A DNA stretch of 64,000 bases. It comes from Acidobacteriaceae bacterium (GTDB taxonomy: Bacteria; Acidobacteriota; Terriglobia; Terriglobales; Acidobacteriaceae). The stretch is from NCBI GenBank assembly GCA_003139995.1, contig PLIC01000085.1:3739-67738 (forward strand), given 5' to 3'. Below are positions 5,265 through 20,935 of this stretch, piece after piece (position 1 is the first letter of the stretch; the number at the start of each line of letters is the position of its first letter). Position numbers and translations under genes: made by a program. The notes below the pieces were generated by a model. The model saw only the letters and a list, made by a program, of their open reading frames with translations. It did not search any database and was not told the DNA's origin.

Positions 5265-5453
5265 CTACAGCAGTCCGCCGGTCTTTATCGCGAGGATGTT
5301 GAGCGCCATCTCCAGTTTCGTTATGGCCTCGCCGAGTTCTGGGTGATCCCCGACCTTCTGCTGCAGTTCCTTCAGAATCCGGTGAGCACTGGCAACATGC
5401 TCCGCCGCCTGGGTTGGATCTTGCTCGGGCTTGGGTTCGCTCGGTGTTGGCAT
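5265..5453 (-). CDS. Small hypothetical helical protein (62 aa)
   Basis: ATG preceded by AGAGGAG with about 7 nt spacing. No recognisable family. Confidence 0.45.
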   Translation of the reverse strand: MPTPSEPKPEQDPTQAAEHVASAHRILKELQQKVGDHPELGEAITKLEMALNILAIKTGGLL

Positions 5454-5591
5454 GGTTTCGCTCCTCTGTACAGTTGAATTCTATATGGGATCGGCGACGT
5501 TCCTGAAGGGGCATGGCATTCTTCCGCCCCGTAGAGAAGGGGCTTGCCGCGTTTCTACGGGAAATCAGACGTCCCCCGGTGCGCGATGCGT

Positions 5592-5639
5592 GGCCGAGCT
5601 ACGCTCGGCTTGGACGGGCGAGGGCGCCCGTCCCCACAC
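5592..5639 (+). repeat. REP-like hairpin pair, related to family B
   Basis: GGCCGAGCTACGCTCGGC hairpin plus GGACGGGCGAGGGCGCCCGTCC hairpin ending in CCACAC. It lies immediately downstream of the rnr stop. Confidence 0.6.
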
Positions 5640-5641
5640 GA

Positions 5642-8011
5642 TCACTTGCGCCGGCTTTTCCCTGACGGCTTGGGCTGCTCTTCGAGTATCGCGAACTGGA
5701 TTTTCTTTTCTACTGGATCGATGCGATCCACCAAGACGCGCACGCGATTGCCCAGGCTGTAGGTTTTGCGCGAACGCTGGCCGATGATCTGGCGTGTATC
5801 TTCGTGGTAGGTGTAGCGGTCGTCGGCGAGCGTGTTGAGTGGGACCAGGCCCTCGACGAAGAGGTCGGTGAGTTCCACGAAGAAGCCGAACTTGGTTACG
5901 CTGATGATTAGGCCGTCGAAATCTTCGCCGATGCGGCGCTCCATGAATTTTACTTTCTTCCATTCCATCAGGCCGCGTTCGGCTTCGTCGGCTCGGCGTT
6001 CAGACTGGCTGGATTCCTCGGCGATGTTGTGGAGTTCTTCGAGGGCGATGGGGCCGCCGAGAGGCGCGAGCGCGTGCTGATGCGCGGCGTGGTCGCGGCG
6101 CTTGGACCAGGGGGATGGGGGCGGCTCGTGTGGTGACGGGGTTTCGCCCCGTCCAAGCGGGGCCGAGCCCCGCTTCCACACGATGTCTGGGGATTGCGAC
6201 GTTCCTACCGGGACTTCTCTATCCATCTTTTCGGGCGAGTCGCGCAGCACTTCTTTCAGGATGCGGTGCACGATCAGGTCGGGATAGCGGCGGATGGGCG
6301 AGGTGAAATGGGTGTAGGTGGTGGCGGCTAGGGCGAAGTGTCCGCGATTTTCTTCGGAGTAGCGGGCCTGCTTCAGCGAGCGCAGCATCAGGAAACTCAA
6401 GATTCTTTCTTCCGGTTTGCCGGCGATTTTCTCCGTGAGTTTTTGATACATGCGCGGGGTGATGTGGATTTCTTTGGGGACTTCGATTTCGCGGACGCGC
6501 TTGCCGGTGCCGCGGGCGTCGCGGCGATCAGCTTTCAGTTGCACGCGCTGAATGGGCAGGGCGCCGACTCCCAGCGAGTATCCGAAAGTGGCGGCGATGA
6601 CTTCGAAGTCGTAGACACGTTTGGCGTCGGGCTTTTCGTGGATGCGGTAGAGCGAAGCGATGCGTTTATTTTCGAGATAGTGGGCGACGCACTCGTTGGC
6701 CGAGAGCATGAATTCTTCGATGAGGCGATGAGCGATGTTGCGCTCGGAGCGCGTGATGCTCTTCATCATGCCGAATTCGTCGAACTCAATGACAGGTTCG
6801 GGGAGATCGAAGTCGATCGATCCGCGGCGCTTGCGTTTGCGGTTCAGGATCATGGCGAGATCGCGCATGCGTTCGAAGTGCCCGATCTGACTGGCGTATT
6901 CATTGCGCGCGGCGGCGTCGCCTTCGATGACGGCATTGACGTCGGTGTAGGTCATTCTCGCAGCGGAGCGAATCACGCCTTCATTGATTTCGTAGCTGGC
7001 GATTTCGCCTTGGTGGTCGATTTCCATGGTGCAGGAGAGCACGAGGCGGTCGACTTGCGGGCGCAGGCTGCAAATGTCGGTCGAGAGCTCTAGCGGCAGC
7101 ATAGGAACGGCGCGGTCGGGGAAATAAACGCTGGTGCCGCGCAGACGGGCTTCCTGGTCGAGCGGCGAGTTAGGCGTTACGTATTGGGCGACGTCGGCGA
7201 TGTGGACTTGCAGTTCGTAGTTGCCGTTTTCGAGTTGGCGGACGTGGACGGCGTCGTCGAAATCGCGCGCGGTTTCTCCGTCGATGGTGACGATAGGAAG
7301 GCGGCGGTAGTCGCGGCGGTGACGCAAGGCGCCGGCGGGAATATCGGATTCGATCGCCTGCGCTTCTGCGATCGCTTCGGGCGGGAAGCGGTGCGGCAGG
7401 TGAAACTTGCGGATCATGATCTCGACGTCGACTCCGAAATCTTCTTCTTCGCCGAGAACTTCGATGACGCGGCCGCGCGGATTCTGCGTGGCGCTGGGCC
7501 AGTCGGTGATTTCGACATCGACCACCACGCCTTCGAGGTCTTGCCGGTTCGTGTAGACTGCGGCCTCGTCGCCTATTACACGGTCCCGGGATTTCTTTTG
7601 CTCTATCGTTTTTGATTGATTTGGAGAAACCCCAACCACAGGGGCCACAGAGGATTGCGGGTACTCCATCCCCGTCGGGATTACGATTTCCTGCGTTACT
7701 TTTTCGTCGATGGGAGCGACGTAGTTGTGGCGATGTCCGTAGTGGAAGATACCGACAACGGTTGGATGGGCGCGAGAGAGTGAGCGGATGATGCGGCCTT
7801 CGGCGCGGCCATCGGTGCGAACGGCGGAGACTTCGACCAGAACGCGGTCGCCGTGCATGGAGGATCCGGTGGCGTGCGGAGGAATGAAGACATCGCCGGC
7901 TAGGCGGGCCTTCAGACTGGCATCGAGCGAAGTGGCTTCGGGAATCACGAAGCCGAAGCCGTCGCGATGCATGGTCAGGCGGCCGATGAGCAGGTTGCGT
8001 CCTTTAGACAT
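5642..8011 (-). CDS. rnr: Ribonuclease R (3'-5' exoribonuclease, RNB family)
   Basis: Cold-shock-like N-terminus (HRDGFGFVIP) and RNB domain (TIDGETARDFDDAV...TSPIRRYPDLIVHR). C-terminal S1 domain (DFDGLIISVTKFGFFVEL) and a basic tail. ATG at 8011. Confidence 0.9.
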   Translation of the reverse strand: MSKGRNLLIGRLTMHRDGFGFVIPEATSLDASLKARLAGDVFIPPHATGSSMHGDRVLVEVSAVRTDGRAEGRIIRSLSRAHPTVVGIFHYGHRHNYVAPIDEKVTQEIVIPTGMEYPQSSVAPVVGVSPNQSKTIEQKKSRDRVIGDEAAVYTNRQDLEGVVVDVEITDWPSATQNPRGRVIEVLGEEEDFGVDVEIMIRKFHLPHRFPPEAIAEAQAIESDIPAGALRHRRDYRRLPIVTIDGETARDFDDAVHVRQLENGNYELQVHIADVAQYVTPNSPLDQEARLRGTSVYFPDRAVPMLPLELSTDICSLRPQVDRLVLSCTMEIDHQGEIASYEINEGVIRSAARMTYTDVNAVIEGDAAARNEYASQIGHFERMRDLAMILNRKRKRRGSIDFDLPEPVIEFDEFGMMKSITRSERNIAHRLIEEFMLSANECVAHYLENKRIASLYRIHEKPDAKRVYDFEVIAATFGYSLGVGALPIQRVQLKADRRDARGTGKRVREIEVPKEIHITPRMYQKLTEKIAGKPEERILSFLMLRSLKQARYSEENRGHFALAATTYTHFTSPIRRYPDLIVHRILKEVLRDSPEKMDREVPVGTSQSPDIVWKRGSAPLGRGETPSPHEPPPSPWSKRRDHAAHQHALAPLGGPIALEELHNIAEESSQSERRADEAERGLMEWKKVKFMERRIGEDFDGLIISVTKFGFFVELTDLFVEGLVPLNTLADDRYTYHEDTRQIIGQRSRKTYSLGNRVRVLVDRIDPVEKKIQFAILEEQPKPSGKSRRK
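6128..6181 (+). repeat. REP-like element, family B, copy inside the rnr coding sequence
   Basis: GTGTGGTGACGGGGTTTCGCCCCGTCCAAGCGGGGCCGAGCCCCGCTTCCACAC is near-identical in layout to the intergenic copy at 20883-20935. It is 54 nt (18 codons) long and is read in frame as VWKRGSAPLGRGETPSPH. Confidence 0.8.
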
Positions 8012-8081
8012 CAGTTCCCAGTTCTCGGTTCTCAGTCTCTAGTGGTTGTTTGATCAATACCATTCAGGTCGGAAGGCACGG

Positions 8082-8141
8082 CCCTCGGGGGCTAAAGCCC
8101 GCATTTTTCTTGGCCCTAAACGGCACGGCTGAAGCCGTGCC
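8082..8141 (+). repeat. REP-like element, family A, copy 3
   Basis: CCCTCGGGGGCTAAAGCCC plus GGCACGGCTGAAGCCGTGCC with a 40-nt offset, between the rnr start and the DinB gene end. Confidence 0.85.
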
Positions 8142-8220
8142 CTACCCAAACCCGATTTATGAAACCTGCCCTAAGTATTCAGTAGTCTTCAGTCTTTGAT
8201 CCAGTTACTGAGAACTAGAA

Positions 8221-8778
8221 TCAGCGCAAGTATTTCTCTTCGAGAATCTTTCGATGATGCAGTTCGTGTCCGGCGATGATGAAGGCTAGGGCGCGCACCG
8301 TCACCTCGTTCTTGCTGGCCACGCCGCGGCGGGTCCAGGCGGCCTCGTCTAGATTACGAAACAGCGAGATGGTGGCGCGGCGCACGGCGATGTAATCTTC
8401 GATCAGGTCCGCCAGCGGACGCCGCGCAAATGGGCCATTGCGGACGTAGTCGTCCTGCTCGAAGCCTTCGAGGGGAGTCGCGTCGCCGCGCGAAATGCGC
8501 AAGGCCCTGTAGCTCATGATGCGCTCAGTATCGCTGATGTGGCCAAGAACTTCCTTGAGGCTCCACTTCTCAGGCGCGTAGCGGAGGTCGCCGTCGGATT
8601 CGGTTCTTCCAGAGAGCAGCAGAAGCATCTGGCGGCGCTGGTCTTCTAAGGCGGCGAGCGCGGCAAGAACGTCGGTGCCCGGAACTAGAGAGATGTAGCG
8701 GTCGTAGTAGGGAGCGTATTCTCCGGGCTGGGGCCGGAGGGAGGCAGTCGCGGTCGAAGTCGTCACGGTTGAAGTCAT
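8221..8778 (-). CDS. DinB-family (metal-dependent four-helix bundle) protein
   Basis: DinB-like features: WSLKEVLGHISDTERI... and C-terminal AGHELHHRKILEEKY. ATG at 8778 is preceded by GAGGA. The ORF-track start at 8829 lacks an RBS. Confidence 0.7.
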   Translation of the reverse strand: MTSTVTTSTATASLRPQPGEYAPYYDRYISLVPGTDVLAALAALEDQRRQMLLLLSGRTESDGDLRYAPEKWSLKEVLGHISDTERIMSYRALRISRGDATPLEGFEQDDYVRNGPFARRPLADLIEDYIAVRRATISLFRNLDEAAWTRRGVASKNEVTVRALAFIIAGHELHHRKILEEKYLR

Positions 8779-20882: not shown

Positions 20883-20935
20883 TGTGGGGACGGGCTTCTG
20901 GCCCGTCCAAACGGGGCGGAGCCCCGTCTCCACAC
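20883..20935 (+). repeat. REP-like element, family B (iscA-hscB spacer)
   Basis: TGTGGGGACGGGCTTCTGGCCCGTCCAAACGGGGCGGAGCCCCGTCTCCACAC: two hairpins bracketed by TGTGGGGA/TCTCCACA. Confidence 0.8.

Follow-up and report, generated by a model that had tools for sequence, protein, structure and literature searches.

A REPIN-like palindrome read in frame in the RNB–S1 linker of RNase R of a peat-soil acidobacterium, in a slot occupied by many repeat families across related species

The DNA considered here is a stretch of 64,000 nucleotides (the window) of contig PLIC01000085.1, which belongs to the metagenome-assembled genome (MAG) of a peat-soil acidobacterium (5.49 Mb in 313 contigs, 92.8% complete, 58% G+C). 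In this window, the gene rnr lies on the minus strand at positions 5642–8011 and codes for an RNase R of 789 amino acids, as assigned from the list of open reading frames (ORFs), the translation, Pfam domains and matches in the PDB. Inside rnr, at 6128–6181 on the minus strand, there is a 54-nt element made of two inverted repetitive extragenic palindromic (REP) units, an arrangement like that of the REP doublets forming hairpins (REPINs), which was recognised by sequence, family profile and fold and is the subject of this report. The only long ORF around it is that of rnr, and the element coincides exactly with residues 611–628 of RNase R (VWKRGSAPLGRGETPSPH). Pfam domains were found at residues 10–76 (OB_RNB), 160–210 (CSD2), 232–590 (RNB) and 693–775 (S1), and therefore the insert falls in an inter-domain linker. 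The closest solved structures are those of bacterial RNase R (8cdu and 5xgu), and the alignment to 8cdu, like the Pfam profiles, places the element between RNB and S1, in a segment that is hypervariable among orthologues. The whole linker, delimited by Pfam and structure alignment, comprises 67 residues (591–657; positions 6041–6241, minus strand). The gene looks functional, because its product shows both the catalytic Asp cluster (DGETARDFDDA) and the TSPIRRYPD motif. In these respects the original prediction for this DNA has been borne out: it had described an element of exactly 18 codons, read in frame, located in the RNB–S1 linker and leaving both domains intact. An AlphaFold2 model of the C-terminal 470 amino acids, based on an alignment of 66 close relatives, had a mean predicted local distance difference test score (pLDDT) of 40 and was left unused.

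On the plus strand, the 54 nt of positions 6128–6181 read GTGTGG-T-GACGGGG-TTTCG-CCCCGTC-CAA-GCGGGGC-CGA-GCCCCGC-TT-CCACAC. The outer arm GTGTGG at 6128–6133, which is the tag of the family, has its partner CCACAC at 6176–6181 (helix 1; 98% of cells paired in 17 copies), and two hairpins with 7-bp stems lie between them: GACGGGG-TTTCG-CCCCGTC at 6135–6153 (helix 2) and GCGGGGC-CGA-GCCCCGC at 6157–6173 (helix 3). In the mRNA sense, the element is predicted to fold into an outer 6-bp stem around two hairpins with an energy of -37.5 kcal/mol (z = -5.4), and none of 200 shuffled sequences was as stable. Its translation adds 18 residues to the linker, mostly rich in Gly, Pro, Ser and Arg. By inspection, stop codons are absent from five of its six frames; being 18 codons long and stop-free in five frames, the element therefore leaves the reading frame undisturbed at whatever point of a gene it inserts. 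A search of Rfam with positions 5300–8300 (E ≤ 1) gave no match except two chance matches to small nucleolar RNAs elsewhere.

The palindrome belongs to a dispersed REP-like family, as had been proposed. Within the window its core pattern occurs at three sites against 0.28 expected, a number reached by none of 100 shuffles. An nhmmer profile seeded by two copies of the window and iterated (cut-off E ≤ 1e-3) detected 119 copies of the family in the genome, that of rnr with E = 6e-11. The REP unit of this family consists of a GTGTGG tag (GTGTAG in some copies) followed by a GC stem of 7–9 bp. About 25 copies, including the one in rnr, are of a closed type (GTGTGG ... CCACAC) with a modal length of 54 nt (16 of 25), and the non-closed copies have the first unit GTGTGGGGACGGGCG..CGCCCGTCC in common and then a divergent continuation. 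Closed copies match the family profile on both strands because they contain two REP units in inverted orientation (the REPIN architecture), one arm being GTGTGG followed by a hairpin and the other a hairpin followed by CCACAC. Among 17 closed copies, pairing is seen in 97.6% of the stem cells, and compensatory double changes were found in four pairs (shuffled mean, 1.0). One intergenic closed copy is located in the window itself, at 20883–20935 on the plus strand (recognised by sequence, profile and fold); the original prediction had pointed to its layout as being the same as that of the rnr element, and comparison of the sequences confirmed it. Most of the family (101 of the 119 copies) lies outside coding-like ORFs. 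Identity as a miniature inverted-repeat transposable element was considered and rejected, given that the terminal arms measure only 6 nt and that no target-site duplication is present in the 10-nt flanks of the copies.

Another member of the same superfamily is found next to rnr. It is an open-ended copy (GTGTGGGGACGGGCGCCCTCGCCCGTCCAAGCCGAGCGTAGCTCGGCC), a REP doublet detected by the profile at 5590–5639 on the minus strand, which begins 2 nt past the rnr stop codon, and beyond it there is a degenerate GTAG-tagged REP, CCGTAGAAACGCGGCAAGCC..CTCTACGG, at 5530–5560. In E. coli, REPs this near a stop codon reduce the translation of the upstream gene. Regarding the possible source of mobility, the genome contains nine Y1_Tnp genes, that is, genes like those of REP-associated tyrosine transposases (RAYTs) or of IS200. 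In what follows, G stands for a genome (G000 being that of the window), C for a contig and L for a locus. The Y1 gene at C274:10790-11083 has both the HUH and the Tyr motifs and is flanked, in inverted orientation, by GTGTGG-GGGCGGGCG..CGCCCGCCCC and GCGCGGGCG..CGCCCGCGC-CCACAC; the tag is that of the rnr family and the stem sequence is different. Its product is a candidate for the mobilising enzyme of the family to which the rnr element belongs. REPtron-like units with differing palindromes have been observed at several RAYT-like genes (G000:C274:10540-11260 and eight loci, L031–L038), the flanking palindromes being CCCACTTCTCG.., CCCCACTCAAGC.., GTAG-GGGCAGGTG.. and GTGTGG-GGGCGGGCG...

Comparison with outgroups bears on whether the segment was inserted. 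The RNase R of B. subtilis aligns to the query through residue 590 and resumes at residue 658, with 13 residues in the place of 67. Likewise, six orthologues of the neighbouring family (L025–L030) have short linkers in which the 54-nt segment is missing. Members of the genus share the flanks ..EVPVGTS and SPWSKRRD.., whereas the stretch in between is variable. Since the segment is absent from the outgroup orthologues and from B. subtilis RNase R, these alignments indicate that it is an insertion. The same comparison had been put forward in the original prediction as a check for a lineage-specific insertion, ancestral sequence being expected if orthologues free of REPs had the same linker peptide; such sharing was looked for among them and not seen.

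The variable stretch defines a hypervariable cassette slot between PVG and SPWSKRRD (residues T604–S633; positions 6113–6202, minus strand), delimited by comparison of orthologues. For this purpose, 98 orthologous linkers were used, the sources being 24 from genomes of the same genus and 80 loci from public MAGs, which are labelled as uncultured Acidobacteriaceae, Terriglobales or Candidatus Sulfotelmatobacter and come largely from peat; about ten of the collected linkers are duplicates of one another. The slot measures between 17 and 74 amino acids in the 98 orthologues, with no preferred value, and at least 11 different repeat families occupy it. When each slot was compared with the window's own genome by blastn-short, many slots of other species turned out to be built from repeats that are dispersed in that genome. 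This is the case for the peptides CHPERSEGP, EGHDFSRAD..GALAPEG, EERPFRAAS and SEANRSAQSKDP, and also for GHRFSDA..ADAPLGAG, SRAGRPRH, HPDPEQAEGEGP and GVPSAPVFGAMGWG. Other slot types are absent from the window's genome: the SAGVPPAVAG/SGRRDAGAT type is dispersed in G001 (61 matches), G007 and G020, and the AAHGASRG type has two extra copies in G024. The shortest slots (17–21 amino acids) gave no match to the repeats of the window's genome. In a core clade of 49 species, more than 90% of the slots carry recognisable repeat sequence. Repeats within repeats were observed in the rnr linkers of four relatives (L070, L023, L009 and L090); in L070 and L023, the second REPIN hairpin has a 27-nt unit, CCTTCGGCTCCGCTCAGGGCAGGCTCC, nested in its loop, and in L009 a unit of the SEANRSAQSKDP type lies within a CHPERSEG element.

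Despite this variety the reading frame is maintained, both anchors of the linker being in one frame in 101 of the 104 orthologous loci retrieved. The three exceptions are a truncated contig, the frameshifted gene of G004 (possibly a sequencing error) and one locus in which the search for the anchors failed. In G004, rnr (L022, G004:C28:503219-505755) is split over three frames, with one of the breaks in the linker slot, and L081 has stops upstream of the match; from their sequences, these two loci could be either pseudogenes or the result of long-read indel errors. Hairpin structure is not conserved. The original prediction had hinted that a strong hairpin in the mRNA of a ribonuclease matters, which the comparison does not support: a perfect stem of at least 7 bp is present in only 34 of 83 distinct linkers, and in 40 of the 83 the longest perfect stem does not exceed 5 bp. 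Many orthologous slots hold only a half-element (CHPERSEG type) with no hairpin, and some copies in relatives are partly decayed or rearranged, as exemplified by the same-family copies in the rnr of G016, which has lost the second hairpin, and of G022, which is rearranged. Taken as a comparison of sequences, these results indicate that the RNB–S1 slot is a clade-wide landing pad, colonised repeatedly by many repeat families, a feature that the original prediction had missed.

In-frame repeats are by no means restricted to rnr. A census of 14-mers in the genome gave 856 repeat intervals, many of them within long ORFs whose codon-position G+C is of the coding type to either side of the repeat. 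Regarding the family of the rnr element, 18 of the 119 copies (about 15%) are in frame within ORFs with coding-like flanks, a count in which the rnr copy served as positive control. The hosts confirmed by domain profiles are UvrA, MetH, ValS (two inserts), AlaS, MnmG (three) and PcrA/UvrD (three), together with Der, an MsbA-like exporter, an Lhr-type helicase, oxoprolinase B, a class-V aminotransferase, a MacB/FtsX permease, PriA, a CCA/polyA polymerase, an NAD epimerase, Dus, an LptD_N protein and a MutS-domain-V protein (MutS2-like by eye). In MetH, ValS, Der, Dus and others, one profile alignment runs across the insert. The frame and the orientation of the element vary between host genes, and therefore no conserved peptide is produced. 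These results correct the earlier view that an insertion of this kind is uncommon, as copies of this family, and many of other families, are in frame in housekeeping genes of the same genome. Altogether, at least 25 genes of G000, all outside the window, carry in-frame copies of several repeat families; their contigs are C45, C47, C74, C280, C288, C274, C262, C253 and C258, and also C39, C156, C136, C304, C199, C93, C237 and C73. Another example of a variable site is that following ..AAELTG in AlaS, which is polymorphic in the genus (alaS loci L039–L068): the ancestral TSLKKELDKEAHTKS is present in about 14 of 28 species, and a REP-derived peptide of the VGTGASPVQAERSSA type in about 8 of the 28, including this genome.

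On this basis, the 54 nt very likely represent a REPIN-type mobile palindrome, tolerated in frame as selfish DNA in a permissive linker that has been hit repeatedly. A REPIN formed by two inverted REPs, each with a GTGTGG tag and a GC hairpin, would have inserted into the variable linker or replaced an older repeat there, probably with one of the nine Y1 transposases (RAYT/IS200-like) as the mobilising enzyme. The insert would then be read through as 18 extra residues, presumably neutral, with selection acting only on the open reading frame. It would survive because it amounts to 18 codons, is stop-free in five of six frames and sits in a linker that tolerates changes of sequence and length. 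As neither a peptide nor a hairpin is conserved, tolerated selfish DNA is the best reading; nothing in the comparisons indicates a function of the insert itself, and peptide, length and repeat family vary freely.

The history of the element has been followed in its relatives. Seven species (L001, L002, which equals L118, L023, L069, L070, L071 and L092) carry it at one and the same place, with no difference in orientation or frame, and in L092 it adjoins an intact element of the EGHDFSRAD type. In a tree of rnr inferred from the DNA of the flanks with the slot removed (53 rows, 1230 columns), the seven bearers are scattered and seven state changes are needed; forcing their monophyly makes the tree 457 log-likelihood units worse (p-AU 1e-94 in the approximately unbiased test). 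Several sister pairs carry unrelated cassettes, namely L071/L080 and L092/L009 (both with support of 100/100) and L023/L098 (98/93), which is indirect evidence of mobility. In the tree of alaS, an independent locus, monophyly of the three bearers that could be tested was also rejected (p-AU 0.0012), and G016 is sister to G017, whose CHPERSEG cassette begins at the same codon. The window's own genome pairs with G020 on the alaS tree and not on the rnr tree; this disagreement suggests recombination among peat Acidobacteriaceae, or weak resolution. The 90 nt on either side of the slot resemble those of the non-bearing sister species and not those of other bearers, so that lateral exchange of the cassette in long tracts is unlikely and was rejected, whereas exchange in short tracts is unaffected by this result. 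In the genomes of other bearers the consensus of the family is identical, with 3–15 near-consensus copies in each and none in a control search. Solid at the level of sequence comparison are the discordance between cassette type and gene phylogeny and the fast turnover.

Some of these data weigh against a purely passive tolerance of random insertions. The rnr REPIN copies of six species differ by 6–20%, whereas four-fold sites in the flanking rnr sequence differ by 30–49% (P about 1e-4 to 1e-11 per pair), and this low divergence implies that the element was either re-inserted recently from a conserved pool or kept intact by some force. In addition, the seven rnr copies do not differ in orientation or frame, every one of the six whose first hairpin is intact belongs to the AAG..CTT subtype, and the sequence GGGCAA to the right of the element is common to three copies. 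Such agreement is unexpected for independent hits that are purely random. The near-saturation of the slot (more than 90%, against about 8 of 28 species at the alaS site) hints at targeting or selection. A pre-existing target motif was considered and discarded, as GGGCAA was found in three bearer alleles only and does not explain the choice of site. Changes in the rnr copies affect about 13 of 240 stem sites and 8 of 84 non-stem sites by hand count, an unconvincing difference, and therefore selection on structure is not claimed. The divergence, the trees and the genomic pools are consistent with an element that was re-inserted or renewed repeatedly from a conserved pool, and the history may have been one of site-specific re-insertion, of allele exchange in short tracts or of old polymorphism with concerted evolution. 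That the RNB–S1 linker is a dedicated landing pad in peat-soil Acidobacteriaceae, specific in site and orientation for REP/REPIN elements and entered or renewed several times independently, is a rather unlikely extension of the idea of a tolerated insert. If it were true, there would be a transposase target within rnr, or selection coupling a nuclease that degrades REPs to the REP hairpins of the mRNA that encodes it.

Other explanations give the insert, or the slot, a role. If long flexible RNB–S1 linkers were selected at the protein level, for instance for positioning of S1 on ribosomes or structured substrates, REPs might just be the handiest raw material, occupancy being adaptive and sequence not. 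The linker of the clade is indeed much longer than in the outgroup family or in B. subtilis, empty slots are very rare in the core clade and every cassette is in frame. Nonetheless, a range of 17–74 amino acids with no favoured value is hard to reconcile with selected length, and relatives with repeat-free slots of 17–21 amino acids have an otherwise identical protein, which makes such a benefit improbable. We give slightly less credit to a role in cis, in which REP hairpins would be kept in the rnr mRNA for autoregulation of RNase R: the transcript's own hairpin and the REP that follows the stop codon could hold up ribosomes or 3' exonucleases, creating a feedback loop. RNase R clears REP-stabilised mRNA fragments in E. 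coli, which counts for this idea, as do the high stability of the fold (the energy and z-score given above), the second REP 2 nt beyond the stop codon, the REPIN core being far more alike between species than neutral sites, and the presence of repeats in the slot of most core-clade species. Yet a strong hairpin is present in under half of the orthologous linkers, many linkers hold CHPERSEG-type half-elements with no hairpin, the stems are broken in the same-family copies of G016 and G022, and the same families occur in at least 25 unrelated genes.

By far the least credible alternative is that there was no insertion, the segment being ancestral linker, a convergent quirk of GC-rich coding sequence or an assembly chimera. 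A fragmented MAG such as this one leaves some room for the last of these. Against the absence of an insertion, the element recurs in frame at this position in six other species, the match to the family profile and the roughly 25 closed copies in the genome link the segment to a dispersed repeat, and the segment is absent from the outgroups.

In other bacteria, comparable elements have been described. The GTAG- and CGTC-tagged REPs are short tagged palindromes, mostly extragenic, a minority of which interrupt known genes without breaking the frame (Di Nocera, De Gregorio and Rocco, 2013; PMC3733652). As singles or dimers they encode about 7–30 residues, RAYT tyrosine transposases are associated with them, and their hosts are enriched in repair and RNA-handling genes such as UvrABC, UvrD and tRNA synthetases (PMC3733652). 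The kinds of host genes are the same in the genome studied here, although the tag is mostly GTGTGG, with the GTGTAG variant in some copies; in addition, RNase R is missing from the list of decorated proteins of that study, which has no description of one slot filled by many families clade-wide (PMC3733652). Another close relative is the REPIN–RAYT system (Bertels and Rainey, 2011; PMC3116915), in which, as here, two inverted REPs make one larger unit capable of forming a hairpin, copies number from tens to hundreds per genome, the consensus is conserved across related species and Y1/HUH RAYT-like genes are flanked by REPs. Differences are the nine RAYT-like genes and many co-resident families found here, instead of one RAYT and one REPIN population, the high intragenic fraction of copies, and the fact that no RAYT gene was found flanked by this exact stem sequence, the closest one sharing the tag only. 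The Rickettsia palindromic elements (RPEs), as summarised in two later papers, measure about 100–150 bp and encode one conserved peptide per family (Ogata et al., 2000, 2002; summarised in PMC10969869, PMC3733652). According to these summaries, they are likewise selfish palindromes that interrupt many unrelated genes, functional and often essential, without a change of frame, and are read as an extra surface peptide. By the same description they differ in that the present element has 54 nt and is used in different frames and orientations by its host genes, and in that its host is a free-living soil acidobacterium and not an obligate intracellular parasite. An assignment to RPEs proper was set aside by description, on account of the length and of the peptides that vary by host gene. 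Nothing on repeat turnover or hotspots was found in the REPORTH preprint. A single in-frame insertion of a REP or REPIN is thus a known kind of event, and the repeated colonisation of one linker slot is what the present analysis adds.

As to its meaning, the insertion is a textbook-type example of a tolerated selfish palindrome in a housekeeping gene, and its annotation should say so instead of suggesting a functional motif. The same warning applies to the annotation of Acidobacteriota MAGs, in which odd peptides rich in Gly, Pro and Arg are repeat translations, e.g., VWKRGSAPLGRG, CHPERSEGP, EGHDFSRAD and SGRRDAGAT. Tryptic peptides predicted for the repeat-bearing rnr linker include GSAPLGR and GETPSPHEPPPSPWSK. 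The slot, which has accommodated at least 11 repeat families, always in frame, across about 100 related genomes, constitutes a natural experiment that addresses how REPs and REPINs choose their targets, how fast they turn over and how much arbitrary sequence a protein linker can hold.

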